IMG/VR virus record: IMGVR_UViG_643692022_000008
Source of the DNA: a virus
Lineage: Duplodnaviria > Heunggongvirae > Uroviricota > Caudoviricetes
Length of the DNA stretch: 42,310 bases
Reading direction: 5' to 3' (one strand)
Under the pieces are notes generated by a model. That model was not told the DNA's origin. It saw only the letters and a list, made by a program, of their open reading frames with translations, and did no database searches. Within the stretch, counting starts at the first letter, position 1, and every line of letters begins with the position of its first letter. Shown piece by piece: positions 1 to 40,866 of the stretch. Made by a program: the position numbers and the translations under genes.

Positions 1-74
1 CAACGTCAAAAAATAATTTACGTTGGTGATAATTAAAATATATTTTCTCTCCCCTTTTTAAACAGTATTTATAT

Positions 75-335
75 TTGTGGGAGAGAAATACGAACTCTTT
101 CGAATTGCAAATCATTACCGCTGGGTATCTGTGTACAAGGAAAGCGGCGCTGAGACGAGCTGGTATTGATGATTTCAGATTTCACGACTTGAGACACACC
201 TGGGCAAGTTGGCTGGTTCAGGCCGGAGTCCCGTTGTCAGTATTACAGGAAATGGGAGGCTGGGAGTCTATCGAAATGGTTCGTCGATATGCTCACCTCG
301 CGCCTAACACCTTACCGAACACGCACGGCAAATAG
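75..335 (+). pseudogene. C-terminal remnant of a tyrosine integrase from a neighbouring or older integrated element
   Basis: Translation ends with [19 protein letters not shown]...MVRRYAHL, matching the catalytic C-terminus of the intact integrase at 39692-40852 ([19 protein letters not shown]...RYAHL). In-frame stops at 27-29 and 30-32 leave only ~86 codons; AT-rich sequence upstream. Confidence 0.75.
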
Positions 336-407
336 ACTCGATCCTGAACCCATCGGTCCCAAATTTGTCCCAGTCAAAAAATAAGGAAGATATTAATGAT
401 GTGTAAC

Positions 408-466
408 TTATTGATTTAAGTGGTGCCGATAATAGGAGTCGAACCTACGACCTTCGCATTACGAAT
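408..466. repeat. Distal att copy: duplicated 3' 46 nt of tRNA-Thr plus ~13 bp of shared flank
   Basis: 421-466 (tggtgccgataataggagtcgaacctacgaccttcgcattacgaat) is identical to 40867-40912; the flank aacttattgattta is also shared with 40851-40864. Confidence 0.9.
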
Positions 467-907
467 CTGTAGCACCAATCATAACTATCTGTTTTAGCAA
501 GCATTAACCGCATTCACTAAGCTATAGTTGATGGCACAAACAGAAAGTTGATGCATGATGTTGTCATGTGTATGTCACAAATACGGCACAACGATCTTCA
601 AACATGTAGCCACACATCCACAGAAGAGCGCAAAGCCTTGCAATCCAGTACAAAGCTTTGTGTGTCTCATTTTTGTCTCACCTTTTATTACGCAAAAAAA
701 GATAAGCCTGAAACCAAACGGCGCCATAGGCATGTTAACGGGAGAATTACCTACCAGGAACTTACAAACCGTTTAAATGATGTGGAAGTATTAACATGTA
801 AAATCGGTAACGGCTGGAAATCATTCAATACTCGCACTATCAAAAGTTCACCAGCCAGCCGCAGCACGTTCTTGCATACGACGTGGCTGCGGCATATCAC
901 AAAACGA

Positions 908-1492
908 TTATTCCATGACAGGGATTACCGGCCACTCAACATCAGGTGCAGTTGATGTATCAACACGGTTCAGCAACACCCGATACTTTTTCCAGGCTTC
1001 CAGCAATGAGGTTTCTACCTCCGTTGCGATCTCAAGATCTACCGCATCCTGAAGTGGCGCAATATTCTCACTGGCTACCCGCATTAGGCTGTTTTTTGTT
1101 TCTTCCGCCTCCCGTATCCGAAACAGTTTTTCTGCTTCTGCATCTTTCACCCAAATTATGCCGTTCCACTTCTGATATTCCCCATCCGGCGACAACCAGG
1201 TGACATTTTCCGGTAACGGGCCGAGTTCAGAAATAAATAACGCGTCCCCTGATGCCACGTCATAGACCGTTTTTTCCCTGTGGTCTTCAACGAGATGCCA
1301 TGATGTATCCTCACTGTTAAAAACAGCCACGAAGCCAGCCGGAATATCTGGCGGTGCAATATCGGTACTATTTGCAGGCAGACCTGTATGAGGGGGAATG
1401 TATGCATCACCTTCACCAATAAATTCATTGGTTCCGGCCAGCAGATTATAAATTTTTATAGTCCGTGGTTGTTCACTCATTCTGAATGCCAT
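908..1492 (-). CDS. Tail fiber assembly protein (Tfa/gpG-like)
   Basis: 194-aa ORF immediately downstream of the tail fiber gene; start overlaps the fiber stop; sequence resembles enterobacterial phage Tfa chaperones. Confidence 0.8.
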
Positions 1493-6359: not shown

Positions 6360-6804
6360 AGTGTTTCAGTGTCATTGTCCAGTTTTTATTACGGTGACCA
6401 CCTCCCGGCAGGAACCGGTTAGTGGTGTCAGTAAAGTCAGTTACCACCCACCATCCCAGAACATCCCCTTCTCCACTGACCAGCTGCAGTGGCTTCGCCT
6501 GGTCGGCAAGAGCAAACAGGTCATTGACGGGGCCAACACCTTTTCGAAAAAAGGCATGGGATTCGCCTTCAAGTCTGACGGTACGCCCCGGCTTTCCGGT
6601 GTACTGGAGAAGATCCTGCTTACCAATGCGCTCCTGTTCGCTCCAGCGCCAGGTTGCTTCGCGGGTCAGCTGGTTATAGGCTGTCGTATCAATCGAAAAA
6701 GCAAAATCTCCCAGCATCATCATCACGCGGGCGGTTCCTGCCGAACGCAGGTTTTCAGCCTGTTGCTGACCAAATTCATCAATAAAAGACATGAAATTAC
6801 TCAC
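6334..6804 (-). CDS. Tail protein U (P2 gpU-like)
   Basis: 156-aa ORF directly after the tape measure gene; MMMLGDFAFSIDT...VLGWWVVTDF...TMTLK pattern is gpU-like. Confidence 0.75.
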   Translation of the reverse strand: MSNFMSFIDEFGQQQAENLRSAGTARVMMMLGDFAFSIDTTAYNQLTREATWRWSEQERIGKQDLLQYTGKPGRTVRLEGESHAFFRKGVGPVNDLFALADQAKPLQLVSGEGDVLGWWVVTDFTDTTNRFLPGGGHRNKNWTMTLKHYADDISNP

Positions 6805-8711
6805 CAGACCAGTCCTCCATCCGTCAGACGGTTGTCCCCGTTAAAAGCCGGATTATTTCGGGTGACCGTGGTCAGTTCATCGGCAATGGCTTTTTCATCC
6901 TGCCCGGGAGCTGCATTAATTTCGAAGTGATAATCAAACTTCCGGTTATCGATAACCTGCCTGGACGGCGGCTGTTTATCCAGTGCGTCCATTTTCTGCA
7001 GCAGGTTTTCCCAGTAGCCCCCTGTTTTGTCCTCCTGCTCTCTGGCAGAACGCGGATCCGGGGCTTGTTGTTGTCGTGAAGAAAATGTGATTTCCGGTAG
7101 AACAGCAGGAAAGACGGGAGGTAACACATCTTTATTCCAGGCTTCGGTATTGTTCTCCGTCATTGCCGGAACGTAATGCATAAATGTGTTGTTTTCTGTC
7201 GTCGTCGGAGCGGTATGAATAACTGTGTTATTTTCCGTTGTTACCGGGGGCAACGATGCAGACTCCCGCTGGTTACGCTGTAAAGCGGTATTCCAGTTTA
7301 ATAAGGATTCGTGGCTTTCCGGGGTCAGATAGTGATCAACAGACTGGTTAAATGCCTCATCATCCGAATCAAAACCCAAATAACCACGTGTCGATGCCCA
7401 GGACTGTTTCACCTTTTCCGGTAAGTCCGGATGCGCTGTTAACTGCTGTTCAAACCATTCCCCCTGTCCACTTCGCTGCGCGGTCAGTCTGGCAAAGTCA
7501 ACGGAACCTCTTCTGGCGAGCGCTTTCAGCACATCACGCTGATCTTCACGCTCATCCGGTAACAGCCAGGCCAGTTTTTTAGCCAGCGCATAGACAATTT
7601 TGCCAACAAAAACCACGCCCTGACCAAAGGTCAACACCCCGGGATAAAGATCGTTACGCAGGAAAGTGACAATACGCCTGACGCCGCCCCCTTTAAACCA
7701 GTCTGCCAGATCGTCCGTTAATCGCCGGATATCAGGTGCCAGCTCGTTACCCAGTTGCCCGGAAATCTCCGCCACCGCCGAAGAGAACACCGTGCGCAGA
7801 TTACTGATAGCCTGATTACCGGCAATCGCACCTTCTGCCCCCTCCCGGGTCACCAGGTTATAACGACGCTGCTCGTCCATCAGCTCCCGGTAGCTTCTAC
7901 CCGACTGTTTGATCAGCATCAGCAGCTTACTGGCCTCCCCGCCAAAAAGAGAGTCCAGCGCAAAAGATGCTTTTGCCTCATCCTGGAGACTGAGCGCCCG
8001 CTCAACAATTTTATCGAACTGCGCCATATCACTGAGCCCGGCAAAATCGCCCTCTTTAAATCCCAGCGTTTCAAAGGCATCCTGCAGAGAGCCCTGTTTC
8101 CCGTTTTGCTTATACTCACCCGCTTTGTGCAGATACTCCTCAAAAAGGTCACCAATATTTTCGGCATTCATATCGTACTGCCGGGCCAGGGAGTCCCACG
8201 CACTGAAGGTGGCGACATCCACACCGTAGCTTTTCGCCACACTGGCGCGGGTGGCAGTTTCAGCATTCGTTGCTGCCGGGGCGATAAGCGTGCCGAGCGC
8301 TGAGGCCACCACACCACCGCCACCAAATGCCAGTCCGGTACCGAACATACCTCCGACCTGACCGGCAATCCCCAGACCACGCCGGAACAATCCCTTCCCG
8401 GCACCTTTGAATGCCTCAATCCGCTGTGCTTTTTGCATCTGGACATTCAGTTTCTGCTGCTCTGCCTCTGCCTTGCGGATCTCTCTGGAAACTTCGCTAT
8501 AACGGCGTTTCAAGTTTCCCAGACTTTCACCTGCCAGTTTCGCGCGTTTAATTTCAGCAGCCAGTTTTGTCTGCTCCTTTGTCAGACGTTCTGAACGTTT
8601 CCCGACATCATTCAGGCTCTTTTGTAAACCGTCAGCCGATCGCTTCCATGAACTGTCCAGGTTACCGCCAAACGTGATAACGGCTTTAAGATTCTGGCTT
8701 ATTCCGCCCAC
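6801..8711 (-). CDS. Tail tape measure protein
   Basis: 636-aa ORF (GTG start) with coiled-coil-rich N-terminus and Gly-rich segments; follows the tail chaperone gene. Confidence 0.85.
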   Translation of the reverse strand: MGGISQNLKAVITFGGNLDSSWKRSADGLQKSLNDVGKRSERLTKEQTKLAAEIKRAKLAGESLGNLKRRYSEVSREIRKAEAEQQKLNVQMQKAQRIEAFKGAGKGLFRRGLGIAGQVGGMFGTGLAFGGGGVVASALGTLIAPAATNAETATRASVAKSYGVDVATFSAWDSLARQYDMNAENIGDLFEEYLHKAGEYKQNGKQGSLQDAFETLGFKEGDFAGLSDMAQFDKIVERALSLQDEAKASFALDSLFGGEASKLLMLIKQSGRSYRELMDEQRRYNLVTREGAEGAIAGNQAISNLRTVFSSAVAEISGQLGNELAPDIRRLTDDLADWFKGGGVRRIVTFLRNDLYPGVLTFGQGVVFVGKIVYALAKKLAWLLPDEREDQRDVLKALARRGSVDFARLTAQRSGQGEWFEQQLTAHPDLPEKVKQSWASTRGYLGFDSDDEAFNQSVDHYLTPESHESLLNWNTALQRNQRESASLPPVTTENNTVIHTAPTTTENNTFMHYVPAMTENNTEAWNKDVLPPVFPAVLPEITFSSRQQQAPDPRSAREQEDKTGGYWENLLQKMDALDKQPPSRQVIDNRKFDYHFEINAAPGQDEKAIADELTTVTRNNPAFNGDNRLTDGGLVW

Positions 8712-8813
8712 AGTTCATCGTCTCCAGTTCATCAGTAAGAAAATCAGAGAAAGTGCTGAACGGCATATCCAGATAGTCCGACATCGGAAAATGCAGTCGC
8801 CGTCCAAGGAGTT

Positions 8814-9125
8814 TTATCGCCCGGAGGAGGTGTCTTTCGGACGCTTCGCGGGCGGTAGCATAAAAACATTGAAGGCATCCAGCAGTTGCGCATAGTCTGC
8901 AGCCGTCAGTTGCCAGATGTCCTTTTCACTGAGGTTGCACAACAGCGCAATCATCCGGGCTTCTTTTTCTTCTTCATTACCGCGATCTTTGGCATGAGCA
9001 ATACGATCGCGCACCAGCGGTTCACGCATCGTCACTTCCTCAAGGATCACGCCACCCTCCAGAATGACAGGGGAAAACAATCGGATAACGCGGGTTTCAC
9101 CGGGAAAAAGCATAATCACCTCCAT
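8814..9125 (-). CDS. Tail assembly chaperone (gpE-like); possible -1 frameshift extension to ~8686
   Basis: 103-aa ORF between tube and tape measure genes; the -1 frame is open from ~8925 to a stop at 8686-8688 and a T5 run lies at 8862-8866 (minus strand). Confidence 0.65.
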   Translation of the reverse strand: MEVIMLFPGETRVIRLFSPVILEGGVILEEVTMREPLVRDRIAHAKDRGNEEEKEARMIALLCNLSEKDIWQLTAADYAQLLDAFNVFMLPPAKRPKDTSSGR

Positions 9126-9171
9126 TAAAAAACGGCCCGCAGGCCGTCAGGTAGTTAAAGAACGGGAATAA

Positions 9172-9678
9172 TCAGAGACGAACTTTTGCCGCCAGACCCG
9201 ACAACATATCGACACCATTTACCCGACGGGAAAAGCGCTCGGTATCAATGGCAAACAGTTCACGACCATCCAGCGTCTGTCGGTAATAACTGACCGCAAT
9301 ATCGACCGTGATAGCATTTTCAGAAAGATTATCCTTACCCCGCGCATCCGGCGTGACAGCCTGAATAAACCCTTCAATTTCCTCAACAGTACCGCGAGCA
9401 GTACCGTTGCCGAGATACCCCTGGTAGGCCGTAAAGCGGGAACGACTGCCACTGACAAATCCAAAGCTGGCCAGCATATCCGTGTCCAGACCGTAAAATT
9501 TCACCTGACAGGTCAGTGCTTCCATCCCGTCATCCACGGGCGTGGGCGCATCCTGGGCACCAGTTCGCAGGTCAGTTTTCACGATTGTCAGCGATGGTGG
9601 CGTAAACTCATGCGCCCCCTGAATACGGATCCCCTGCCGGAAGAAAGTCCAGGCACGTAGTGTATTTTTATCGCTCAT
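9172..9678 (-). CDS. Major tail tube protein (P2 FII-like)
   Basis: 168-aa ORF immediately downstream of the sheath gene. Confidence 0.8.
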   Translation of the reverse strand: MSDKNTLRAWTFFRQGIRIQGAHEFTPPSLTIVKTDLRTGAQDAPTPVDDGMEALTCQVKFYGLDTDMLASFGFVSGSRSRFTAYQGYLGNGTARGTVEEIEGFIQAVTPDARGKDNLSENAITVDIAVSYYRQTLDGRELFAIDTERFSRRVNGVDMLSGLAAKVRL

Positions 9679-11144
9679 GCTGCCAGCATCTCCTCAAGCG
9701 CATAGTTATTATTCACCCGGACGCGCAAACTGATAAGTTCAGTCGGCGATTTCGGTCCAAAGTCATAGTTGATATACAGGACACCTGCCGCCATGCTCTC
9801 TGCGGTATTAAGTTCTTCATCCAGCCAGGCCCGACCGCCGAAGATGGCGCCCAGTCCGACCAGTTGTCGCATATAGGCATTAATGGTGCCGATAATGTCA
9901 TCGGCATTTTCGCGATCCAGCGGACGGTCAACATACTCCAGCATGGTTTCCTGAATGCTGTCCTCGATAACATCTGCTGTACGTCGTACGGATTCAAAAC
10001 GCCACTGCGGATCGGTTGCGCACAGACGGTTTCCCCAGTGTTTAAAGCCCGCACGACGGATAATGGTGGATACGTTCTGCATGTTGAGCAGGTTCGCATC
10101 GCAGTTTTCATCCCCGAGAATAAATTCGTCGATCTGCTCCACCCCGAGGATATTGTTGATGTCCTGGTTCGATTTGCTCCACCACCAGCCCTTTTCGTAG
10201 TCGATACGGGCACGTAATCCGGCGGCAAAAGCAGAGTAAGGGCGATACACTAACTGGCCATCCGCATCGGCAGCCTGAACACGCGGTCGCAACAGTTCAG
10301 TACGGGCACCATAGGACTGACGGCGCTGTACCACCTCCTGCAACGTTGCACCGGAAGCACAGTCAACATAAGCCACCGCGCGTAATTTCCCGGCCACCGT
10401 TTCCAGGGCTTTCCCGACCGCATCGTCCTCACTAAATCCCGGCGCAATCACAATACGTGGCTGATACGTGGTAATGGATTTTGCTGATGACAGAAGCCCA
10501 ATCCCTTTCAGTATGGCTGCCCGTTTTTTTGCCCCGTCAGTTTCATCAGCCACCCGCACCACCACTGTCAGCGCATTACGCTGATCATTAATCTCTGTCA
10601 GCGCCTGTTTGAGAGTCCCCTTGTCTCCCAGACGATTAATGAGCGCGGTGCCCGCCACAGCCACAGGCGTATTTAACGGAAAAGGCTCATCTTCGCCCCC
10701 TTCCAGCTTTACACTGAACGTTGCCAACAGCCCCTCGCCACTGCCTTCGGCCTGAACTTTGACGCCATCCAGCGCATTGACCACACTGACCACATCAGCA
10801 GGTCGCGCCGTGATCACCCCCTGCTCATCACAGCCCAGTGTCACCGTCAGTTTGTGCGTAACGTCATCCCAGGATGCCGATGTGTTAACAGCCTGCGGGC
10901 TTTCCGTATCTGGTACCGCCGCCACCGCGTCCACCTGGATAACATTGCCAGCCCGGCCCCTCTCCTTTGCTGTGAAGTTCAGAACGTTATCCAGAATCGG
11001 CGTCCCGGTGGTGACCGCTGCCGCACTCCCGGCAGACGACTCCGGTGCCGTGCCCACCAGACCGATAATAGCCGTCTGGATAGTGGTCACCGCCACAGTT
11101 CCCGAGGTCAGTTCAATTGTTTCAACACCATGTAACTGAGACAT
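9675..11144 (-). CDS. Tail sheath protein (P2 FI-like)
   Basis: Start at ATG 11142-11144 with GGAG RBS; ~490 aa; C-terminal region (GAIFGGRAWLDEE...LYINYDFGP) is sheath-like. Confidence 0.85.
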   Translation of the reverse strand: MSQLHGVETIELTSGTVAVTTIQTAIIGLVGTAPESSAGSAAAVTTGTPILDNVLNFTAKERGRAGNVIQVDAVAAVPDTESPQAVNTSASWDDVTHKLTVTLGCDEQGVITARPADVVSVVNALDGVKVQAEGSGEGLLATFSVKLEGGEDEPFPLNTPVAVAGTALINRLGDKGTLKQALTEINDQRNALTVVVRVADETDGAKKRAAILKGIGLLSSAKSITTYQPRIVIAPGFSEDDAVGKALETVAGKLRAVAYVDCASGATLQEVVQRRQSYGARTELLRPRVQAADADGQLVYRPYSAFAAGLRARIDYEKGWWWSKSNQDINNILGVEQIDEFILGDENCDANLLNMQNVSTIIRRAGFKHWGNRLCATDPQWRFESVRRTADVIEDSIQETMLEYVDRPLDRENADDIIGTINAYMRQLVGLGAIFGGRAWLDEELNTAESMAAGVLYINYDFGPKSPTELISLRVRVNNNYALEEMLAA

Positions 11145-11181
11145 GTCTTTCTCCAGCCATAAAAAAACCTGCCGCAGCAGG

Positions 11182-11799
11182 TCACATTTTCTGATTAGGT
11201 TTATCCGTACTCCCGCCACTGTCGCCGGGGTGGTTGTGCTCGTTAAAGATGTTGCGGATCCCGCTCATACTGCCGGTTTTGTCGGTAATTTCTGCAGAGG
11301 CACCAATATTACCCTTCACCGTCGTATCGGCGTTAATCTGCGTTTTCCCCTGTACAGTCAGGGTATCGGTGATTTCAACCGGACCATCAAGCGTACCCTT
11401 ACCGGTGATTTTGTAAGTGCCTCCTTCGGTCAGGGTGATCGTCAGGGCATGAGCTGCCCGGTCATACCGGATCTCTGTGCCGTCGCTGTAACGGGTAATA
11501 TGTTCGCTGTCGCTGCCCTCCGGCACGGGTAATTTCCCGGTGTTCCAGCCAGGAAACACCCGCCCGTTGTTTAACTCTCCGGCCTCCGACAACACTGTCA
11601 CCGCATCACCGACGGCATAAGGATTCGAATCAGCCCGGTTTGCGCCAGAAAAACCCTGACACAGCGGCAGCCAGGTCGTGATGATATCGCCCAGATCAAC
11701 CCGGCATTTGGGGATACCATCATGCCGGACAGAATGAATCACACCGCGTCGTACCAGATTTGCCAGTCTGCGTTGCAAATCCCCTGTAATGTCACTCAT
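11182..11799 (-). CDS. Baseplate assembly/spike protein V-like
   Basis: Start at ATG 11797-11799 with AGGAG RBS; C-terminal HNHPGDSGGST motif resembles the gpV family; placed upstream of the sheath gene rather than next to gpW. Confidence 0.5.
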   Translation of the reverse strand: MSDITGDLQRRLANLVRRGVIHSVRHDGIPKCRVDLGDIITTWLPLCQGFSGANRADSNPYAVGDAVTVLSEAGELNNGRVFPGWNTGKLPVPEGSDSEHITRYSDGTEIRYDRAAHALTITLTEGGTYKITGKGTLDGPVEITDTLTVQGKTQINADTTVKGNIGASAEITDKTGSMSGIRNIFNEHNHPGDSGGSTDKPNQKM

Positions 11800-12343
11800 C
11801 AGCTCCTGCCTCCAGGATAAGGTAATAGTCGTCCACATGCTGCCGCCCCGTATCCGGTGCTACTCCCAGCCAGACCTGACTCAGTGGCATAGCGGTGCGG
11901 GCGAACGGATCCACGCCAAAAGCTGCCTCCTGGGTAAACGACACCCGCCACACCAGGTAGTCATCCATGCGAGGATCAAATTCGTCACGCTCTGCAGCAG
12001 TGAATACGGCGGGTGAAATGTGAGTCAGACCAAACTGTTGCCCGTCAATCCACTGCGTAATATCTGCTGCCGCTGTTCGCAGGAAGATTTCCGGACAACT
12101 GAGACCAGACGCGGCATCAACCACCACATAAAGATCGCACGAGAGTTCAACATTGAGTTGCCCCTCATTGCCGCCGTTCTGCTCCCAGCTGTTAATGGTG
12201 AAATACACGGCAGGCGTCACCAGCCCGGTGAAACGGGGAATATTTTTTTCAGGATAAGCTCCGGCATCACTTACCCACGTTATCTGCTTCAGCGCACTGA
12301 TAACCGCATCGTGGTATCGGGCCAGAGATAAAGGTTCAGCCAT
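11792..12343 (-). CDS. Virion structural/tail completion protein (hypothetical)
   Basis: 183-aa ORF in the head-tail joining block, overlapping the downstream gene. Confidence 0.5.
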   Translation of the reverse strand: MAEPLSLARYHDAVISALKQITWVSDAGAYPEKNIPRFTGLVTPAVYFTINSWEQNGGNEGQLNVELSCDLYVVVDAASGLSCPEIFLRTAAADITQWIDGQQFGLTHISPAVFTAAERDEFDPRMDDYLVWRVSFTQEAAFGVDPFARTAMPLSQVWLGVAPDTGRQHVDDYYLILEAGADE

Positions 12344-12353
12344 TGTGATGACC

Positions 12354-13010
12354 TCATACAGATATCCTGGCTTTCACCCGCCCACGGATATCTGTTTCAA
12401 AATGGTGCATGAAAATGTCCATTGCTTCGGCAAAGGCGTTATCTTCAATGTAATTGAGCATCGGTTCATAAATATCCACCTCAGCTTCCCGGGTACGCCG
12501 GGTTTGCGGATCACGAATAACCACCGTTCGCCGATTCTCTCGTTTTGAGCGGGCGACTTCGCCATTTTCGAAGGTCAGTGTCGAAAGCAGACTGCCTTTA
12601 GGCGTAAACCCGGCATTTTTTACCTGTCGACGAGCTTTGATAAAACGCCCCGTGGATTTATCCCGCAGGGTATGGCGCGGGCGTAGCCGCCCGTTAATTC
12701 GCCCTTTCAGGTCTTTAACCTTAATGGCGTTGAGACCAAACCAGATCCTGAAATTATCCAGCCGGGAGCCTCTGTCGAGGCGAAAAGAGAGCAGACGGCG
12801 GCGTACCAGCCCGATACTGCGCGGCGCCAGCCCGTCTTTCAGATCAGCCAGCGCTTTTTTGCGCAGGGTGGCAGCAGTTCGTCTGAGCGCCCGGGAGTAG
12901 GCTGCCCGAAACTGTTTTTGTGTGGCACCGATACTGTCCGCAATCTGCCAGATAGCATCCACATCAATATCGATCGGTAAATCCCGTCGCAGTCTGAATC
13001 CTCGCGCCAT
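12354..13010 (-). CDS. Phage virion morphogenesis protein-like
   Basis: Start taken at internal ATG 13008-13010 abutting the upstream stop; lies between head and tail modules. Confidence 0.5.
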   Translation of the reverse strand: MARGFRLRRDLPIDIDVDAIWQIADSIGATQKQFRAAYSRALRRTAATLRKKALADLKDGLAPRSIGLVRRRLLSFRLDRGSRLDNFRIWFGLNAIKVKDLKGRINGRLRPRHTLRDKSTGRFIKARRQVKNAGFTPKGSLLSTLTFENGEVARSKRENRRTVVIRDPQTRRTREAEVDIYEPMLNYIEDNAFAEAMDIFMHHFETDIRGRVKARISV

Positions 13011-13011
13011 A

Positions 13012-13368
13012 TCAGCTCCATTGTTCAATCGGTGGCTGAACGTTTCCCGGTGCGCCATACGCCAGCGTGACACGGGTGCGCCCGGCTTCGTTCGCACCGA
13101 CATGCGTTACCCGGTAGCGAATATTGTTCACCACCACCTCATCATGCCTGGACAGTCCGACAATATCCGTCGTCATCGCACTGAATGCCGGGGCGTGATT
13201 GCTGATTTCTCCGCCACCCGGAACACTGACCGGAGCATCCGGCGTTTCAAAAATCACATTCACCTGACGACATTCATTACCGATGTACAACACTGCGGGG
13301 TATGGCTGCGCAAAAAGTCGCGTTATGCGGGCCTCTGCCCGCATCAGCCGTTCATGGAAATTGCCCAT
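13012..13368 (-). CDS. Head-tail connector/adaptor protein (hypothetical)
   Basis: Start at ATG 13366-13368 overlapping the upstream stop (ATGA); ~118 aa. Confidence 0.45.
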   Translation of the reverse strand: MGNFHERLMRAEARITRLFAQPYPAVLYIGNECRQVNVIFETPDAPVSVPGGGEISNHAPAFSAMTTDIVGLSRHDEVVVNNIRYRVTHVGANEAGRTRVTLAYGAPGNVQPPIEQWS

Positions 13369-13697
13369 CAGTAACCGAGACGCACACACACGGTAGCATC
13401 GCTGGTTTCTGCCGCTGCCCATACGGTTCCCACCAGCGCATTGCCCGATTCTGTTGCTGTCAGCGTGGCAGTATCAGACCTGAGATATACCCGTTTTCCC
13501 TGTGTCAGTTCTTCAGCTTCTTTGGGTAATGCAAAAATCCCCGTGGTATGCAAAACACCTGAGCCATCCTGCAGAATATCCGCATGCGCCACCCCGATCA
13601 GATTGTCTTTAACGACCAGTTCCCCGGATAAGACTGTTTTACCGCTATCGTTCACCCATTCAACGGTCGTACCGTCCTGAACATAATTTTTTGACAT
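13368..13697 (-). CDS. Small head-associated protein (possible decoration protein)
   Basis: 109-aa ORF directly downstream of the major capsid gene. Confidence 0.4.
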   Translation of the reverse strand: MSKNYVQDGTTVEWVNDSGKTVLSGELVVKDNLIGVAHADILQDGSGVLHTTGIFALPKEAEELTQGKRVYLRSDTATLTATESGNALVGTVWAAAETSDATVCVRLGY

Positions 13698-13768
13698 TTT
13701 TACCTCCGGTATAAGCGGCTCCCGACGGTGCCGCCTGAGTAAAAAAAACCGCCTGACGCGGCGGTGAA

Positions 13769-15814
13769 TTACTGTTTTTTGACTTTAACCATGCCACGCC
13801 AGTCAAGCGGTGCGACCCCGGCATCAATGCGCACTTTGAATGCGGCCCCGTCAACGGTAAAGCCCTGCTGCTGTTCCAGATACGGAGTATCGATACCGTC
13901 AAGATAAGCCACTTCAATCGTGTCACGCCCCTGTGCCGCCACCAGGTAATAATCGGTCGGGCTGCTGTCATCCAGACGGGCTTCTGACAGAACGGTGGCA
14001 AAGTTCTGGATCGGGTTAACAATGCCGCTGTTGGCATCTGCCCCCGGTACACTGGAAGATTTAATTAACTGACTTGCCCGGGATTCAATGGCAACAGGTG
14101 TCAGCATAAAGGCCGGACGAATATTCAGGCGGCGGCTACCGGACTTTTGCAGCAACATGGCTTTACGCCCTGCATCCAGTCCTTCAATGGACAGATCCGC
14201 AGTCACCAGGTTGCCGTGATCGGCATGGAACAACGGTTTACCATCAGACATTTTCGGGTTGCTGGTCAGTACGGCCCAGACAAGATCGCCCACTGTGGTA
14301 CGCGCTGCTGCTCCCATTGCCATCGGAATACGGGTCAGCATATCCAGGTCATCGTTAATGATGGTCTGGCGATCAATGCTGAAGAGTTCGCCATACGTAG
14401 CCAGCGCAATGGGCTCACCGCGATCTTTAAGGGTTACATACTTATATTCAGCGCCCGGCTGAACCTGTCGCAGGGTCGGGAAAGCCTCCAGCCCCACACG
14501 GTGGGCAGTTTTAAAATCTGACAGCGTGCCCTTGCGGGTCCACTGGTCAAACGTTTCACTGGCGCTGCCCCAGCCCTGCAGTGCCGCTTTGTGAGCAACA
14601 TCCATCAGGATATTGCCAAAGTCACTGCCACTGTGGGTGAATGCCAGCCCCACCATTGCCATCGGTGCGGCATGTCCGGAAATTCCGATGCCGCGATCCA
14701 CCAGTGAGGCACGCGCCAGTTCGCGTAGCGTAAAGCCGTTATAGGCATTGTCTTTTTCGGCTTCGCTGTACCCTGCGCGAGCCATCACTGCTGCACGGAT
14801 GGAATCACCCACCAGATTGCCGTTTCCTGCGTAAATGTGTGCTGCTCCCGGCCCGGCACAGGGCGTGGTACCCGCCGCCAGCGCCTGCAGCAGTCGTTCA
14901 CGGGCTTTTTCAGCCGAGCAGGTGAAATCGCTCAGGCATTCCGCTTTCAGCGAGGCGAATGCCGGAAATGCGTCGAACACGGCAGAGACGGCGTTCACGC
15001 GTTCCGCATTGGCAGCCTGCATCTGCTGCTGTAGCTGAGTGGCCAGCGCGGCAATATCTACGGCGCCTGGCTGCGGTGTGTCCTGAGATACCTGTGGTGC
15101 CGGAGGCTGGCTGGCCTGCAGTGGGGTAACCTGAGTTTCTGCACGCGGAGCAAAAAGAGCATTAACCTGTTCTGGCATATTCTGATAATCCTTCAGTTTA
15201 TTTTGGTTCACACAGGCCGCAGCCTGTAATTCGGGTTCGAGGGAGTCTGCAAAGCCCTTTTCCACAGCTTCAGCGCCGCTGAGCCAGGTTTCCGATTTCA
15301 GCATGGCCTCCAGCTCCTCCTGCCCCAGTCCGGTTTTATTCATGTAGGCAGACAGCATCAGCGCCTCGTTGCGATCCAGCCAGTCGGCATAATCACGCAT
15401 ATCATCGGAATCACCGGCGATCCCGCCCCAGGGCTTATGCACCATAATCCAGGCGTTTTCAGGCATATGTACTGTGGCTCCGGGAAGGCAGACGATCATC
15501 GATGCCATACTGGCAGCGACACCATCCACCCAGATATCCACCTTCGCTTTCAGGCGTGACAGCGTGTTAAAGATGGCAAAGCCCTGCATCACATCACCGC
15601 CCGGGCTGTGGATATGCAGATCAATGGCGCTGGCCTCAAACACCCCCGCATCTTTACAGTCAGTGATAAACTGCTGCGCGGTGATGCCCCATCCACCAAT
15701 CACGTCATAGAGGAAAATTTCCACCCGTCCGGTTGCCTGTGCACGGATTTCGTACCAGCACTGACCGTTTGCGGCATCGACACCCGCAAGGCTGGCGCGG
15801 GGATTAATCGTCAT
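13769..15814 (-). CDS. Prohead protease (ClpP/S49-like) fused to major capsid protein
   Basis: Start taken at ATG 15812-15814 just after the portal stop; N-terminal half has a ClpP-like serine protease core (HIHSPGGDV...VDGVAASMASMI); long C-terminal capsid-like domain. Confidence 0.8.
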   Translation of the reverse strand: MTINPRASLAGVDAANGQCWYEIRAQATGRVEIFLYDVIGGWGITAQQFITDCKDAGVFEASAIDLHIHSPGGDVMQGFAIFNTLSRLKAKVDIWVDGVAASMASMIVCLPGATVHMPENAWIMVHKPWGGIAGDSDDMRDYADWLDRNEALMLSAYMNKTGLGQEELEAMLKSETWLSGAEAVEKGFADSLEPELQAAACVNQNKLKDYQNMPEQVNALFAPRAETQVTPLQASQPPAPQVSQDTPQPGAVDIAALATQLQQQMQAANAERVNAVSAVFDAFPAFASLKAECLSDFTCSAEKARERLLQALAAGTTPCAGPGAAHIYAGNGNLVGDSIRAAVMARAGYSEAEKDNAYNGFTLRELARASLVDRGIGISGHAAPMAMVGLAFTHSGSDFGNILMDVAHKAALQGWGSASETFDQWTRKGTLSDFKTAHRVGLEAFPTLRQVQPGAEYKYVTLKDRGEPIALATYGELFSIDRQTIINDDLDMLTRIPMAMGAAARTTVGDLVWAVLTSNPKMSDGKPLFHADHGNLVTADLSIEGLDAGRKAMLLQKSGSRRLNIRPAFMLTPVAIESRASQLIKSSSVPGADANSGIVNPIQNFATVLSEARLDDSSPTDYYLVAAQGRDTIEVAYLDGIDTPYLEQQQGFTVDGAAFKVRIDAGVAPLDWRGMVKVKKQ

Positions 15815-17315
15815 CCCGCGACAGGGCGGGCTTATCATTTGCTGCATCAGGGAGCACTCCTTTATCGTTGGCGGCGTCAGAATCGAACACCAGCCCGTTT
15901 TGTCGGTTAAATTCGGTTTCACGCATTCGCTGGCGTTTGACCTCCTGCGGTGACTGCCCTCTGGCACGGATCCACTCGGCTTCTGTTCCTGCTCCACCAC
16001 GAAGAATGGCCCGCCATGCTGCAGCCTCTTTGACGGGATCAATCCACGGCATCACCGGACCAAGATAGGTCGCGTTAAAGAGCGTGGTTTTGTCGATATC
16101 AGGCGGGATATCCATATCAAGCAGCGCCATTGCCAGCCAGGCGCGGTACACCGGACGGCTGAACTGCCCCACAAACCATTGCTGCAGGACGTTATAACCT
16201 TCGTAACTTTCCACCAGTTCCTGACGTTGTGCGCTGTAGGTGCCGTTGTAGTCACGGGCAATACTGGAATAGCTGCCGCGACTCCCGGCGGCAACCGCCC
16301 GCAGTTGCCCGTTACGAAACTCATGGAGGTGGACGTTCGGACGGTTTGACTCAACCATGCCCAGATCTTCCCCCGGCGCCAGGTCGTCGAAAATCATGCC
16401 TGGCGCAATATCAAAGTGGCGGTACTTTTGTCCTGAGGGTTTCCAGTCTTCATCCGCCGGAAAGCTGGCGGCATCACCACGCTTGATGTAGAAGCCCAGC
16501 GCGGCAGCAATGCGGGCAGCCACACGTTCGCTCTCTTCGTAGTCCTTAATGTCACCCAGACGGCGGATCACCCCATGAAGCAGACTTATGCCACGTAACT
16601 GGTGAAGGCGTTTACGCTGGGCAAGGTGCAGCATGTTCTCTGCCGCAATGGTTTTCAGTTCAGCGCTGAAGCGCGTCATACTGGCCGGGTGATATTTGTA
16701 AACCCGGTAACCAACAGGACGCCCCCAGTCGTTAACGATAATGCCCTGGCGGATCTGCTGCCCCGATGTGCTGTTAAGACTGAACGGGACAAAATCAGCT
16801 TCCAGCAGTTCCAGTGAAAACGGCACTCGGGTTGCGTGCGTCAGTCCGGCAACCGGGCCCCGCACCAGCTGCGTGAACATCTCACCATCACGCAGTGCTG
16901 AACGCAGCGCCAGTCGCTCGGCTTCCGGACGGGTAAACACCCCCGTCACCTCCGGACGCACCGACCATTCCGACCAGAGTGCAGATATCTGTGCTGCAAA
17001 TTCTTCATGCAGCTTACCGTCCAGACTGAGCGGTTGCGGCTCCACCTGGATCCCCTGCGCACCAATAACACGTTCTTCCAGCTTATCCAGCAGACCAATC
17101 ACTATGTCATGGTCTTCATCCAGTGCCCGTGCCTGCTCACGCAGAGATACGCCAGCCACACCCACCGCAGTATCTGCCGCCCGACTCTCACGTTTTGTTT
17201 TGTTCACTCTGGAGGGGTGCGCCGCCTCGTAGGCGCGAAGAAGCATTCTGTTTCTGGCGCGCGAAACAGCCCACCCTGGCGCAATCGCGCCAAGTGCCCT
17301 GTCAAAAATGCCCAT
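15804..17315 (-). CDS. Portal protein (lambda gpB-like)
   Basis: 503-aa ORF between the gpW-like and protease-capsid genes. Confidence 0.8.
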   Translation of the reverse strand: MGIFDRALGAIAPGWAVSRARNRMLLRAYEAAHPSRVNKTKRESRAADTAVGVAGVSLREQARALDEDHDIVIGLLDKLEERVIGAQGIQVEPQPLSLDGKLHEEFAAQISALWSEWSVRPEVTGVFTRPEAERLALRSALRDGEMFTQLVRGPVAGLTHATRVPFSLELLEADFVPFSLNSTSGQQIRQGIIVNDWGRPVGYRVYKYHPASMTRFSAELKTIAAENMLHLAQRKRLHQLRGISLLHGVIRRLGDIKDYEESERVAARIAAALGFYIKRGDAASFPADEDWKPSGQKYRHFDIAPGMIFDDLAPGEDLGMVESNRPNVHLHEFRNGQLRAVAAGSRGSYSSIARDYNGTYSAQRQELVESYEGYNVLQQWFVGQFSRPVYRAWLAMALLDMDIPPDIDKTTLFNATYLGPVMPWIDPVKEAAAWRAILRGGAGTEAEWIRARGQSPQEVKRQRMRETEFNRQNGLVFDSDAANDKGVLPDAANDKPALSRDDD

Positions 17316-17323
17316 GAATGACC

Positions 17324-17539
17324 TTACAGAAAGTTAGCGAGTTTGAAGTTGGTGCCGCGACCGTTGACGGCCTGCCAGCGTTTTTCCCAGTATTCAAGCT
17401 CTTTACGAAGTGCGACGGGATCATGGTTGGTAATGGCGCGCCCATTCACGCCAGTAAAAGACACGCTTTTCCCGTCCAGAGAATCACGATACGCCTGGCG
17501 TACCGTGACCAGCATCTGCTGGATTTCAGATTTCGTCAT
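17324..17539 (-). CDS. Head-tail joining protein (lambda gpW-like)
   Basis: 71-aa ORF overlapping the large terminase stop, in the lambda A-W-B order. Confidence 0.7.
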   Translation of the reverse strand: MTKSEIQQMLVTVRQAYRDSLDGKSVSFTGVNGRAITNHDPVALRKELEYWEKRWQAVNGRGTNFKLANFL

Positions 17540-19653
17540 AGCCAGCCTCCGTTACCACTGACCCCCAGCCAGCCGCCAGACAGTGGGCTGGCCTGTTCGG
17601 TGACGGCAACCGGAGATGAACGAGCGGATATCGCTTTTTTCACTCCCCTCTCCCCGGGGCGTTCCCCGTCAATAATGTCCGGATTTGTGTCCTGAGATGC
17701 CGCCCAGGCAGGCGGCTGCTCCCAGTCTCGGATTTTTTCGTAACCACGCAGAATAGCGACGGCATGGGCATAGCAGAACAGGTCGAATGCTTCGTTGTTC
17801 CCTTTACCTGGCTTGCGCCATTTTCCGTCGCTGCCCCGCTCCTCATAAGTCAGCTCCTCGTAAAACCACTCACCGAGCCAGTCGGGAAAATGGATATACC
17901 CGGCCCCCGGGGTTTCACGCTCCAGATTATTGCTGAGTTGATCTTTGAGCAGATCGGTCTGCAACAGATATACCGGTACTTCGCCGCGGGCATCAGCCCG
18001 GCGATCGCTTCGTCCGGTATTATCAGGGTGTGTTCGGGTGATCACTTTCTGGCGACGGGTACTATCACCTTTTATCAGGTATACCCGTTTTCCCAGACCA
18101 TCACGGCGGCATGTGCGCCAGAACTTATACGCATTATCCGTCACACCATCCTCACCCCCACTGTCCACAGCCATAGCCAGCACGGGCATACGGCGGGAAG
18201 GATTTGACTGGAGAGGGTATGTTTTCTCCAGCACATCCGTGATCAGCAACTGCCAGTCCTCAGGGTAAGAGCCCGGATGAATCGTCAGTGCCTCGCCGTT
18301 TTCATCACAGCGCAGGGACTGACGAATGTTATAGCGATCCACCAGCCAGCGTTCGCCGTTCTCACCGTAACCGATAATCTGCACCACAAAACGACGTTTC
18401 TTCCCGCCCTGTACATCCACCGATGCCAGCAGAAAACGCACCTTCGGTGGTACCAGACGTTTACCGTAGTCCTCCGCCCGCTGCATCAGTACATCAGCCC
18501 TGCGCTGTTCGGTCGCCGCGCGTGGCAGATAAGGTAAGCCCCAGTCAGTGTTGATCACCGTTTTCAGTGTTTCTTCACTGCCTGTGGTTTCATAGTCCTG
18601 CTCTGCCGTCAGTAATTTGTAAACCAGCTGTGCCCAGGTCTGGTAAGCCGCGGCGGGACCTTCCATCCAGAAGGACGCGATGCGGGAACGACGGGCATCA
18701 CCCGATACATTCCCGGCTTTATCAATGCTCTGACCTTCCCTGAGCCAGACGCCACGTCCGTTAAGCTCCCGCTTTTTATCAGCTGTGATCACCCCGTTAC
18801 AGTGCGGGCAGACGATATGTGCCGCTTCACTGGCTTTTACCGGATCGGCAATATCGCGGTAACCGGTCATCGCCTCCATAGCAGGCTGAAAGTACCCACC
18901 ACAGTGCGGACAGGGCCAGTACCAGCGACGGCGATCACCGCGATTATATAAAGCCAGAATACCGGTAGTGGGTGGCGCTTCATGGGGTGATTTTCGTCGC
19001 CATTTGGTATTGGTGATTTCCCGCCCTGGCGAGCTCTCCACCAGGGTCATGCCCGCCGACATAAATGTGGTGGTTCGTTTTGAGGCCAGCGAAAAACCAT
19101 CGCCTTCCCCGTCGATATCCTCCGGAAAACGGTCGTAATCCGTCAGTGCAACGCATTTAAAATCCGAGGATGACATGATGTTGACGGAGGGCCAGCCAAT
19201 CTTGAGGTAGTTTCCGGCAAGAAACGTGCGGTCATGAACGTTGTTATCGTTACGCGACGGACTCAGCCTGCATGCCACTTCCGGGCTGACGCGAAATGTT
19301 CTGGCCAGACGTTTTTTGGAGTGTTCACGCGCTTTTTCTTCCGTCATCTGGACGATAAGCATATCCGACGGGTCACACACCACGTTGTACACCACCCAGC
19401 CGTCAATCAGCCCAATTGTTTTACCTGTTCGGGCCGGACCAACAAAAATAACAGCATCATACTCACGTGATGCCAGGCAGTTCATCGGCTCCACGACATA
19501 GGGGGCGAGTTGCGGATCCCATTCGACGGAGTTTCCGACGCCCACGGGAACCCGCATGTACTTATGAACGGCCTCGGCAACAGGCATCCGACGCGGTGCC
19601 TTTATGATCCCGGCGGTATTCTTTCTGACTTCCGCCGCCGTGGCCTGTCGCAT
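17536..19653 (-). CDS. Terminase large subunit (lambda gpA-like)
   Basis: 705-aa ORF following the small terminase gene; N-terminal ATPase region (VIFVGPARTGKT) and C-terminal nuclease region. Confidence 0.9.
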   Translation of the reverse strand: MRQATAAEVRKNTAGIIKAPRRMPVAEAVHKYMRVPVGVGNSVEWDPQLAPYVVEPMNCLASREYDAVIFVGPARTGKTIGLIDGWVVYNVVCDPSDMLIVQMTEEKAREHSKKRLARTFRVSPEVACRLSPSRNDNNVHDRTFLAGNYLKIGWPSVNIMSSSDFKCVALTDYDRFPEDIDGEGDGFSLASKRTTTFMSAGMTLVESSPGREITNTKWRRKSPHEAPPTTGILALYNRGDRRRWYWPCPHCGGYFQPAMEAMTGYRDIADPVKASEAAHIVCPHCNGVITADKKRELNGRGVWLREGQSIDKAGNVSGDARRSRIASFWMEGPAAAYQTWAQLVYKLLTAEQDYETTGSEETLKTVINTDWGLPYLPRAATEQRRADVLMQRAEDYGKRLVPPKVRFLLASVDVQGGKKRRFVVQIIGYGENGERWLVDRYNIRQSLRCDENGEALTIHPGSYPEDWQLLITDVLEKTYPLQSNPSRRMPVLAMAVDSGGEDGVTDNAYKFWRTCRRDGLGKRVYLIKGDSTRRQKVITRTHPDNTGRSDRRADARGEVPVYLLQTDLLKDQLSNNLERETPGAGYIHFPDWLGEWFYEELTYEERGSDGKWRKPGKGNNEAFDLFCYAHAVAILRGYEKIRDWEQPPAWAASQDTNPDIIDGERPGERGVKKAISARSSPVAVTEQASPLSGGWLGVSGNGGWL

Positions 19654-19656
19654 GGC

Positions 19657-20175
19657 TTACTCCTCTTGTGACAAACTGTCCTCCTGTTCTGGCGACTCTG
19701 CCAGCTCAACCTTCATGGCAATCTGATCCCGCAGGTCATCTATGACTTTTTGCACCCTGACGACGGCTGACGGTGTCATTGCACAGTCACGCTCGAGAAT
19801 ATCCGGTAGCGTTTCCAGTACCTGAACGACAGCTTTTGCCATTGAGGCAAACTCCCGGCTGACTTCTGAGGCCGGGATAAGCTCTCCGGTCTCCTGCTGA
19901 AACTTGAGGCGCTCCCGCTCAGACTGAAACCACGCCTTTCGATCCGGCGGTGTCATTTTGTCAACAGCAACCAGCTCCGGCGTCGTAGTCCTGCCCAGTA
20001 ATTCCCTGAGAATATCCAGAACCGAATACAGCTTGAGGCGGGAGTTACTTCCGGGGGCAGGCTCAACATTGCTCAGTCTACTTGCGACGGTCTGACGATG
20101 CAGATTAGTCAGCGCCGCCAGCTGGTTAATATTGAGGCGAAGATTTTTCAGTTCGTTATCCATGATGGTGAACAA
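19657..20175 (-). CDS. Terminase small subunit (Nu1-like, HTH)
   Basis: 172-aa ORF with N-terminal HTH (NINQLAALTNLHRQTVASRL), 3 bp upstream of the large terminase gene. Confidence 0.8.
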   Translation of the reverse strand: MFTIMDNELKNLRLNINQLAALTNLHRQTVASRLSNVEPAPGSNSRLKLYSVLDILRELLGRTTTPELVAVDKMTPPDRKAWFQSERERLKFQQETGELIPASEVSREFASMAKAVVQVLETLPDILERDCAMTPSAVVRVQKVIDDLRDQIAMKVELAESPEQEDSLSQEE

Positions 20176-20755
20176 TATTTAAGCGAATCGACATCATGAA
20201 TAATTTCACAACTGAAATATCAACAGGTTAGATAAAAGATGATGATGCCGATAAAATGCAAAAAACCAGCCGTTTTCCGCGTGTCCGCAGCCCCCCGGTG
20301 TTTCAAATCGCCAGGAGGACCCGCCAACCGCTCTGGTTTACTCCGCAAAACGAATGAAAATCTGAACGACCACGGTCGCACAGACTAGAATACATGTCCT
20401 GTTTCTTCCCCCCCACACAGAACTTGCGAGCATGAGGGACAAACCCGCGAATAATTAGCGCGGTAAAAACCCGGTGTGCATCGTTTTTGATTATTTCCGC
20501 ACACTCGCGCAGAGGAGTTCCCCGTCGGGCTACGGTCATTGTTAATGCGGGAATACGGCGACGATACAGCGCAGCTAAAAGGGTAAAGGACAGATAGAGC
20601 GGTTTATTTCATTCCACAGGATTCTGAATGTCCCCAACTCCCTCCAATAGTCTGAGCGTCCACCTGTGTAGTTTTAATTTTCATCAATTCATTTAACTAT
20701 CGTTTAATTGTTGTCACATAGGATTCTGCCGTTTTTAACAATGCAGGATAATAAG

Positions 20756-21049
20756 ATGAAAAAAATGTTGTTTTCTGCCGCTCTGGCAATGCTTATTACA
20801 GGATGTGCTCAACAGACGTTTACTGTTGGAAACAAACCGACAGCAGTAACACCAAAGGAAACCATCACCCATCACTTCTTCGTTTCGGGAATTGGACAGG
20901 AGAAAACTGTTGATGCAGCCAAAATTTGTGGCGGCGCAGAAAATGTTGTTAAAACAGAAACCCAGCAAACATTCGTAAATGGATTGCTCGGTTTCATCAC
21001 TTTTGGCATTTATACTCCGCTGGAAGCACGGGTATATTGCTCACAATAA
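20756..21049 (+). CDS. bor: Bor/Iss-family outer-membrane lipoprotein (serum resistance)
   Basis: Start at ATG 20756 with RBS; MKKMLFSAALAMLITGCAQQTFTV...LEARVYCSQ closely matches lambda Bor including the lipobox (ITGC). Confidence 0.9.
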   Translation: MKKMLFSAALAMLITGCAQQTFTVGNKPTAVTPKETITHHFFVSGIGQEKTVDAAKICGGAENVVKTETQQTFVNGLLGFITFGIYTPLEARVYCSQ

Positions 21050-21057
21050 TTGCATGA

Positions 21058-21087
21058 GTTGCCCATCAATATGGGCAACTTTATCTG
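21058..21087 (+). terminator. Rho-independent terminator after bor
   Basis: Hairpin gttgccca/tcaata/tgggcaac (21058-21079) followed by ttta. Confidence 0.55.
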
Positions 21088-21542
21088 CACTGTTCCTTAA
21101 TATACTGCTGAGTCCCTTCCAGTTGTTTCTGCATTATTATCAGTCTATCTCTGAGGGTGAAATAATTCCGTTCAGCGGTGTCTGCCAGTCGGGGGGAGGC
21201 TGCATTATCCACGCCGGAGGCGGTGGTGGATTCACGCACGGACGGACAGACTGCTTTGATGCGCAACCGACGACGACCAGCGGCAACATCATCACGCAGA
21301 GCATCATTTTCAGATTTCGCATCATCTAACTCCTTCGTGTATTTTGCATCGAGCGCAGCAACATCACGCTGGCGAAGCTGCATATCAGTAATTGTCGAGT
21401 TCGCCAGCTTCAGTTCACTGGCCTTGTTATCGCGCTGCTCTTTGTAGGCGATTGCGTTATCACGGTAATGATTAACAGCCCATGACAGGCAGACGATGAT
21501 GCAGATAACCAGAGCGGAGATAATCGCGGTTACTCTGTTCAT
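21081..21542 (-). CDS. Rz: i-spanin Rz
   Basis: [34 protein letters not shown]... closely matches lambda Rz; start overlaps the endolysin stop. Confidence 0.9.
21140..21325 (-). CDS. Rz1: o-spanin Rz1 (embedded in Rz, +1 frame)
   Basis: [19 protein letters not shown]...[27 protein letters not shown] matches lambda Rz1 lipobox and proline-rich region. Confidence 0.85.
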
Positions 21543-22036
21543 TGCTGACCCCACAAACAGATTTCACGCTCAATCTCACGACGAGTCATGAGACCTTTCC
21601 ATTGCTTACCGCCAGCGTATGTCCAGCGCCGTAGCTGATCACATGCGCCTTTGATATCACCCTGGTTTATTTTGCGAAGAAGCGTCGATGTTCTGAAATT
21701 GCCAGCACCCACGTTGTAGACGAACGAGTAAAGAGCGCCGCGCGTTGTTTCCGGTATATCGACTTTGATGTACGGGTTAATTTGTCTGGCGACAGTGGCA
21801 AGGTCTTTATTCAGGAGGGCTTTGCATTCTGCTTCGGTATACGTTTTACCGAGCATAATGTCTTTTCCGGTGTGTCCGTAACATACAGTCCATACACCAA
21901 CTATGTCTTTGTAAGGATTATGTCTCACACCTTCCAGACCATCGTTACCACTTGGGCCAGTGATTAACACAGATGCTATAGCAATAGCCCCGCCACCAAT
22001 AGCAGCAGCAACAGCTTTTCGTAATGATGGAGGCAT
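21539..22036 (-). CDS. R: SAR endolysin (phage 21 R-type lysozyme)
   Basis: N-terminal SAR segment ([20 protein letters not shown]) plus lysozyme domain; near-identical to R21 as I remember it. Confidence 0.9.
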
Positions 22037-22251
22037 TATTCACCTCTCGCAGCCTTGCGCTTATCTTCTTTAATCTTGAAATAAAGGTTTGTCAGGTACG
22101 TCAGCAGGCCAAATACCAAGCTACCCAGCACACCTATTGCTGCCCACTGTGAGGGCGTGACTTTATCGAGCAGCTGTAAAAACCAGTAGCCAGCACTGCC
22201 TGCGGAGGTGCCGTAGGCAATGCCCGTTGTTAACTTATCCATGGATTTCAT
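22036..22251 (-). CDS. S: Pinholin (phage 21 S-type)
   Basis: 71-aa protein [26 protein letters not shown]... with two TM segments, overlapping the endolysin start. Confidence 0.9.
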
Positions 22252-22345
22252 AGCCTCACCTCCGCAAATAACGGATGGTGTACACGGTTCGGAACGAAGA
22301 GGAAAGGTATAGAAGTTACATTAGCGTAAGGCTTGAACATCTATT

Positions 22346-22378
22346 CAAAAAGAAAAACGCCAGCGATTATTCTGGCGT
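22346..22378 (-). terminator. Rho-independent terminator downstream of the AraC-family gene
   Basis: Hairpin acgccag/cgattatt/ctggcgt (22357-22378) followed on the minus strand by a U-run (plus-strand aaaaagaaaaa 22346-22356). Confidence 0.6.
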
Positions 22379-22439
22379 AGCTGAAAGCATCATACAATTA
22401 TCAAATACGAAAATTACAAAATCATTAAAACGCATCACG

Positions 22440-23180: not shown

Positions 23181-23520
23181 CTGATATCATTGAGGTTACA
23201 CCAGGTAAGTATAGGTGGAAAATCAATATTCGCCAGTTCAACAATAAGGAAAATCTCATTGCATCACAAGTATAAAATTATGTATTTAACTCACAAAGAC
23301 AAATTATTAAACCAATCTGTTATATTATATATAGCTGCGTGGAATCATAATATTATATTTTGACTGGCATGTTTACCAACTTTAAGTTGCATCTCAATGG
23401 TTTCTTCAGCGTAAACAGAGTTTTTATACAAACTGACACTCTGGGTATCATAGTGTAGTTTTTACGATTGTAAATATCCTGCATGCAGGAACTCATCCTT
23501 TTGGATGATATCGCATACAA

Positions 23521-39399: not shown

Positions 39400-39467
39400 G
39401 GCCTGCCAGCTTCTCAAGATATCCAGACCTACAGCAATCATGTCAATCCAATAAATGGAGACTCCAA

Positions 39468-40852: not shown

Positions 40853-40866
40853 CTTATTGATTTAGA

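Follow-up and report, generated by a model that had tools for sequence, protein, structure and literature searches.

The thrW locus and its resident prophage

Bases 1-1492 of the window, by which we mean the whole 42,310-nucleotide stretch of DNA analyzed here, are identical to the reverse complement of CU928158.2, the chromosome of Escherichia fergusonii ATCC 35469, and a second strain (L002, GCA_020352015.1) equals this reference base for base across 20.6 kb. The proA gene of the window has a best identity of 96.9% among 5,426 complete E. coli genomes, a ceiling that fits a sister species of E. coli. The sole tRNA gene identified by ARAGORN is thrW. The main features of the locus are the following.

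1-91, plus strand: chromosomal 3' flank of ykgR, not island DNA; the alignment with the sequence downstream of E. coli ykgR holds to about base 91 and then breaks
92-100, no strand: fusion junction between the ykgR flank and an integrase remnant, made up of bases of uncertain origin; its exact point may fall anywhere in about 92-103
403-420, plus strand: start of the old element's int-side att arm, with 16 of 18 bases equal to 40849-40866 beside the resident int
421-466, plus strand: distal att core, which matches the 3' 46 nt of thrW exactly and runs seamlessly into 40913 onward in a prophage-free contig (L011)
467-40866, no strand: resident mosaic prophage of 40.4 kb, described from its ORFs and Pfam matches; the whole segment is absent from L011
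about 39396-39815, in the resident prophage: xis (ORF/Pfam)
39692-40852, plus strand: intact integrase of 386 aa, covering PF00589 profile positions 2-170
40867-40942, minus strand: functional tRNA-Thr(CGT) gene thrW, the proximal att site
41057-42310, minus strand: proA, to the right of thrW

The 46-mer TGGTGCCGATAATAGGAGTCGAACCTACGACCTTCGCATTACGAAT has exactly two copies in the window, at 421-466 and at 40867-40912 (the 3' 46 nt of thrW), where none are expected from 100 shuffles. A preliminary description of this DNA, made from the sequence alone, had regarded 421-466 as the distal att copy of the prophage, and this exact repeat of the thrW 3' end supports that reading. The repeat continues beyond the core: 403-466 and 40849-40912 are identical at 62 of 64 positions, in agreement with the earlier proposal that the two elements carry similar int-attP junctions. 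Within this extension, the shared flank aacttattgattta (405-418, equal to 40851-40864) overlaps the stop codons of both integrases, which are TAA at 405-407 for the remnant and at 40850-40852 for the resident int. A candidate third copy of one repeat family (D3; 9865-9896, 72%) was a short match of low identity in the phage tail region, and we took it as a chance similarity.

The segment 467-40866 has the anatomy of a site-specific prophage: repeats of the tRNA 3' end lie at both of its ends, its integrase gene sits beside the complete tRNA gene, and a precise empty site exists. Its int/xis/attP module is 98% identical to those of the lambdoid phages HK446, mEp213, mEp043, HK542 and ECP1, and records of relatives of this integrase carry the annotation "attP type CP4-6; similar to thrW and ptwF".

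Elsewhere in the prophage, lambda-like phages share about 91% identity with the region 20000-25000, for which the matching records give lysozyme and Rz. For the genes of packaging, head and contractile tail (about 6800-19900), identity to Citrobacter phage Chris1 reaches only about 80%, and the tail genes belong to P2-type Pfam families (sheath, tube, GpU, X, D, W, J, I). The early region contains, at 33583-35231 and adjoining an S24 repressor, a Peptidase_M78 gene (379 aa) and a DUF4411 gene (170 aa), for which the Pfam matches were made on the corresponding genes of L006 and L008; the two resemble the cargo pairs that prophages often carry.

A decayed integrase gene beside the distal att core

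Judged from its sequence, the stretch from about 101 to 407 is the decayed 3' end of a tyrosine integrase gene, a scar of some 300 bases that is fused to chromosomal DNA and corresponds to roughly the last 115 codons minus 25. The best relative among complete E. coli genomes is an intact integrase gene of 372 aa, found in strain NT1F10 and in nine similar isolates from pig, pork and cattle, and it served as the reference against which the following parts were delimited.

75-335, plus strand: chimeric ORF of 86 aa, which the public assembly lists as a gene; integrase only at 141-307
101-145, plus strand: integrase remnant piece A, Int residues QIGNHHRWVFVYKES of the intact NT1F10 homologue, in a frame that differs from that of piece B
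139-145, plus strand: GGAAAGC, the lone remaining copy of a 7-bp direct repeat flanking a 74-bp deletion
141-307, plus strand: integrase remnant piece B, 56 aa (KAALRRAG...RYAHLAPN) with HxxR, W and the catalytic Tyr; protein 100% identical to NT1F10 Int
308-407, plus strand: integrase remnant piece C, 32 aa in a frame shifted after a 1-bp deletion, with the original stop TAA at 405-407

The ORF at 75-335 matches PF00589 significantly (E = 6.2e-19, 68.9 bits against a cutoff of 27.1) and covers only positions 115-170 of the 172 in the profile, so that the catalytic domain is incomplete. When corrected for frame, the remnant protein is 65% identical to residues 299-379 of the resident intact Int; at the DNA level, 136-298 is 71% identical to 40581-40743 of the resident int, with 71-76% overall. 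The two genes have matching orientations, each with its 3' end facing an att core. The preliminary description was therefore right in calling the fragment a related but non-identical tyrosine integrase that faces the att copy, and its delimitation as the C-terminal ~86 codons at 75-335 stands in part: the integrase C-terminus is real, but 75 to about 100 is not integrase sequence, 101-145 is integrase in another frame, and the original coding sequence runs on to 405-407. Indeed, the ORF begins with a TTG inside the ykgR flank, 74 nt downstream of ykgR, and stops at 335 because of the 1-bp frameshift.

Three lesions interrupt the reading frame of the remnant. The first is the 5' truncation at about 92-103, and the second is an internal deletion of 74 bp between GGAAAGC repeats (139-145). 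Using blastn with a small word size, two collinear segments were found against the NT1F10 integrase gene, namely 110-145 (88.9%) and 139-520 (97.65%); the two share 7 nt of the window (GGAAAGC), with an offset of 74 bp between them in the intact gene, from which the repeat-flanked deletion follows. The third is a 1-bp deletion at 307/308, where the DNA alignment shows one T missing relative to NT1F10. Over 110-145, piece A is 91.7% identical to integrase genes in about 1,200 E. coli genomes, and its 15-aa translation from base 101 is integrase-like in a three-frame translation. With 89-92% identity to known alleles over this stretch, against 97.6% for the rest of the remnant, it suggests that the parental allele was not exactly any of those retrieved. 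A truncation at about 137, as given by a MAFFT alignment in which window 101-138 was misplaced, was rejected, since the small-word blastn and the three-frame translation show homology resuming at 101-145.

Of the catalytic elements, the remnant retains HDLRH, W and RYAH, and lacks the regions that align to GLRRSN (the first Arg) and to the Lys-containing strand of intact integrases. Lacking that Arg and that Lys, it cannot be an active recombinase, and on the strength of its sequence it is best described as a pseudogene derived from the tyrosine recombinase family, not a functional member of it. An Rfam scan of the stretch from the ykgR flank through the remnant to the att core found no RNA family at E <= 1.

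The chromosome to the left of the scar

The sequence to the left of the window was obtained through exact-protein look-ups, which returned the same chromosome with 10 kb extra (L003 and L005). Window base 1 is directly preceded by the stop codon of ykgR (33 aa, YkgR Pfam family; L005 9825-9926, which equals window -101 to 0), and about 10 nt separate the ykgR flank from the integrase homology. Beyond ykgR follow, leftward, a LysR regulator, two aldo/keto reductases, an acetyltransferase and a gene with GerE and EAL domains (L003/L005), a domain pair that we take to be that of E. coli PdeL/YahA. The first 3.6 kb of this flank (both aldo/keto reductase genes, LysR and ykgR) is collinear with its E. 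coli counterpart, to which it is 91.7% identical.

Downstream of ykgR, E. coli has ykgM-ykgO-ykgL-ecpRABC and more (L004 10020-16111), all between ykgR and thrW, whereas in E. fergusonii the integrase scar comes directly after ykgR and the locus lacks the ykgM-ykgO-ykgL-ecpRABC block. Decay of the thrW element in the E. fergusonii lineage may have taken these neighbouring chromosomal genes along; a literature search on E. fergusonii and loss of the ecp genes returned nothing relevant.

The 3' flank of ykgR itself contains two hairpins, at 1-25 and 44-88. The larger one, UUUCUCUCCC...GGGAGAGAAA (44-88), is kept in E. coli with one change on both sides of the stem (U-A to C-G, at the third pair from the stem base). 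The RNA fold z-score of window 1-100 is -2.8, and no Rfam family matches the hairpins. The hairpin at 44-88 may serve as terminator of ykgR or, lying upstream of the position that ykgM holds in E. coli, as a regulatory element.

The scar in a prophage-free chromosome and in other strains

An exact look-up of ProA returned other E. fergusonii-like contigs, one of which lacks the prophage. This contig (L011, from SRR20034978, another E. fergusonii sample; 5,151 bp) carries proB-proA, a gap of 610 bp, ykgR and LysR, and is 100% identical, ungapped over 3,364 nt, to a constructed empty site made of the left flank, window 1-466 and window 40913-42310. In other words, the order ykgR-int'-thrW-proA (int' being the remnant) exists with an intact thrW beside the scar and with the 40.4-kb prophage precisely absent, which means that the scar is chromosomal and no part of the prophage. 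The cell from which this contig came could have been cured, rather than never lysogenized.

Four other short-read contigs end at window 40883, 30 nt inside the core. Assuming a k=31 assembler that stops at the duplicated core, this would suggest that thrW is occupied in these four samples as well. A further assembly with an identical ProA (L007, GCA_019840705.1) diverges 2 nt past the end of thrW into unrelated DNA with no adjacent integrase. That DNA looks like a third kind of thrW occupant; at L007 11445-13331, about 1.3 kb nearly without called genes is followed by a gene for a resolvase/invertase of 183 aa and a phage capsid gene.

We also searched for junction patterns in metagenome and species-representative collections. 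The exact junction of the ykgR flank with the integrase remnant had no match in metagenome_contigs, the 74-bp-deletion junction had none in genome_contigs or metagenome_contigs, and the E. fergusonii-specific ykgR-flank pattern had none in genome_contigs.

Relatives of the old integrase

Compared over 329 nt with the int 3' end and attP of the Shigella phages SfII, SfIV, SfV and SfI, the remnant shows 96.7-97.3% identity; it is likewise about 97% identical to E. coli phage phi458, and 82% (81.8%) identical to the int of P22. Nucleotide identity thus places it with the thrW-specific int-attP modules of the SfII/SfV/P22 type, as does its layout, in which the stop codon (TAA, 405-407) comes directly before a core (421-466) identical to the 3' end of thrW. 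Considering that the remnant is of the SfII/SfV type and the resident integrase of the HK446/mEp213 type, two different thrW-specific modules have used this site. The core at 421-466 is at once the right-hand attachment site of the resident prophage and the tRNA-side core of the old element.

The integrase type of the remnant is widespread in E. coli, where it occurs at 90-99% identity in 2,332 of the 5,426 complete genomes, O157:H7 included (the range given is 1,288-2,332). None of the E. coli alignments listed crosses window position 139, and the 74-bp deletion was not seen in them. NT1F10 is 97.6% identical to the remnant over the int 3' end, the att core and the right end of the phage; unlike the E. 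fergusonii scar, it has kept the full 372-aa integrase gene (L001 14151-15269) in a prophage remnant of 13.7 kb, which is bracketed by att cores at L001 1628-1658 and 15298-15328.

In the ten E. coli strains from pig, pork and cattle, the similarity extends across a hybrid junction: window 139-985 and L001 15001-15849 are 97.5% identical, a stretch that spans the 3' end of the old integrase gene, the att core, the right arm of the resident prophage's type and the start of the tail-fibre assembly gene. The prophage of these ten strains is truncated by a transposase fragment. The presence of the hybrid junction in two species may reflect either independent site-specific integration or transfer.

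The surroundings in NT1F10 (L001 and L015; 3.625-3.675 Mb) form a region of more than 45 kb of mobile DNA beside paoD. It holds the prophage remnant bracketed by thrW cores, DLP12-like genes (emrE, ybcK, rusA), another truncated integrase and IS1, as well as trbJ/traJ, conjugation genes, an ABC-three-component system, a restriction-modification pair and a further phage tail module. When this array was traced toward thrW, the next 20 kb was further mobile DNA, in which no tRNA gene was reached.

A proposed history of the locus

The best explanation of these observations, to which we assign a probability of roughly 0.88, is that a dead relic of an SfII/SfV-type integrase gene lay at thrW and that the resident prophage later integrated into its core. 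An SfII/SfV-type element would once have been present at thrW in the E. fergusonii lineage, or would have arrived together with thrW-flanking DNA. A deletion running from the integrase gene (about codon 257) to a point 92-103 nt downstream of ykgR would then have removed the rest of the element, its distal att site and the intervening chromosome, leaving ykgR-int'-thrW-proA as the product. The relic would subsequently have suffered the 74-bp deletion mediated by the repeat and the 1-bp frameshift. Later, the resident 40.4-kb prophage would have integrated by means of its Int into the 46-bp thrW core and duplicated it, so that the old 3' end of the tRNA gene and the integrase relic were moved to the far end of the prophage. 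We infer both this order of events and the truncating deletion in situ. The serial integration at thrW that the preliminary description had suggested is borne out by a relic of a different thrW element that shows the same int-att geometry and is present without the prophage.

It is unlikely that the scar was instead imported already truncated from E. coli or Shigella by homologous recombination of a thrW-proximal segment. The abundance of the same integrase type in E. coli (1,288-2,332 of 5,426 complete genomes) would be consistent with such an import, as would the identity of 97.5% over the junction 139-985 in ten E. coli strains, which exceeds the 91.7% of the flanking core genes. This difference in identity says little about import, however; between species, phage genes commonly show higher similarity than core genes do. 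The alignments that end at position 139 and the 74-bp deletion that is seen in none of them argue against import, and so does the left junction, which lies in a ykgR flank of the E. fergusonii type and had no E. coli match as a short query.

The reverse order, in which the resident prophage came first and an SfII-type element entered its distal att site and then decayed to a scar, appears quite improbable. Either order gives the same middle junction (arm of the new phage, core, arm of the old int), so that the structure by itself cannot tell them apart. What speaks against the reverse order is that a scar beside an intact thrW in L011 would then need a later, precise excision of the older prophage. 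Moreover, decay is unequal: the scar carries three inactivating lesions, while the prophage has an intact int ORF in a module still 98% identical to those of isolated phages. Given this inequality and the prophage-free contig, the reverse order is the less parsimonious. Finally, in the one experimental case, that of SfI integrating at attL (thrW) of a resident SfX prophage to yield tandem prophages between proA and yaiC, the incoming phage used the attL at the tRNA (PMC3306764).

The preliminary description had favoured a tandem element, or a large remnant of one, that occupies thrW and continues past the left edge of the window, and had named upstream island genes and a third att copy as what should be looked for. 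The geometry of the remnant and its att core does equal that of the intact integrase and thrW, and an array of this kind exists in E. coli NT1F10. Nevertheless, such a continuation is refuted by the upstream sequence: the integrase homology ends at about 101, bases 1-91 are ykgR flank, and ykgR abuts base 1 and is followed by ordinary genes collinear with E. coli. The 9.9 kb left of the window contain no third att core (the only core in L003 is the window copy), and a tandem array requires at least three where two are found here; nor are there second-element genes beyond the integrase. What that upstream inspection indicates is an isolated scar, the outcome that the preliminary description had itself named as refuting its reading. 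Only a misassembly of CU928158.2 at this junction would revive the tandem element, and the independent contig L011 has an identical junction. The last alternative, that the fragment is a duplicated or aberrantly packaged piece of the resident prophage whose end it adjoins, is refuted by its persistence in the prophage-free chromosome, besides its position outside the att repeat and its identity of only 71-76% to the prophage int.

Comparison with known thrW elements and meaning of the scar

Serial integration of an SfII/SfV-type element and the resident prophage, our preferred reading, makes this locus one of a known kind: it is an ordinary hot-spot scar at a tRNA gene, not a second island. 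The phages SfII, SfIV, SfV and SfI (P22-type, serotype-converting) use the same thrW core downstream of proA (PMC3306764) as the remnant does. Compared with them, the E. fergusonii scar retains about 115 last codons, with lesions, and has no xis, gtr or other phage genes. In the SfI-SfX tandem, two thrW elements likewise integrated serially, and the middle junction again joins an arm of the new phage, through the core, to the int arm of the old one; there, however, both prophages are complete and three att copies are present, whereas in E. fergusonii about 300 bp are left of the older partner, with two att copies.

The CP4-6 cryptic prophage of E. coli K-12 occupies thrW and has a partial distal copy, ptwF. 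As in the window, the thrW hot spot there has a partial copy of the tRNA gene at the far end of the insert, in line with the annotations of the matching records.

If the ORF at 75-335 were transcribed by read-through and translated, its product would be a C-terminal Int fragment with HxxR, W and the catalytic Tyr and without DNA-binding or N-terminal domains, which might interfere with the Int of thrW phages, for example by forming inactive multimers. We consider this very unlikely; if true, the fragment would alter lysogeny or excision at the thrW hot spot.

Beyond correct annotation, the significance of the scar is slight. The ORF that the public assembly calls at 75-335 should be read as a chimeric pseudogene, and the true right boundary of the resident prophage is the att copy at 421-466 rather than the integrase fragment. 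For E. fergusonii, the locus indicates that phage integrases of at least two types have made use of thrW, as a third element probably has in another strain.
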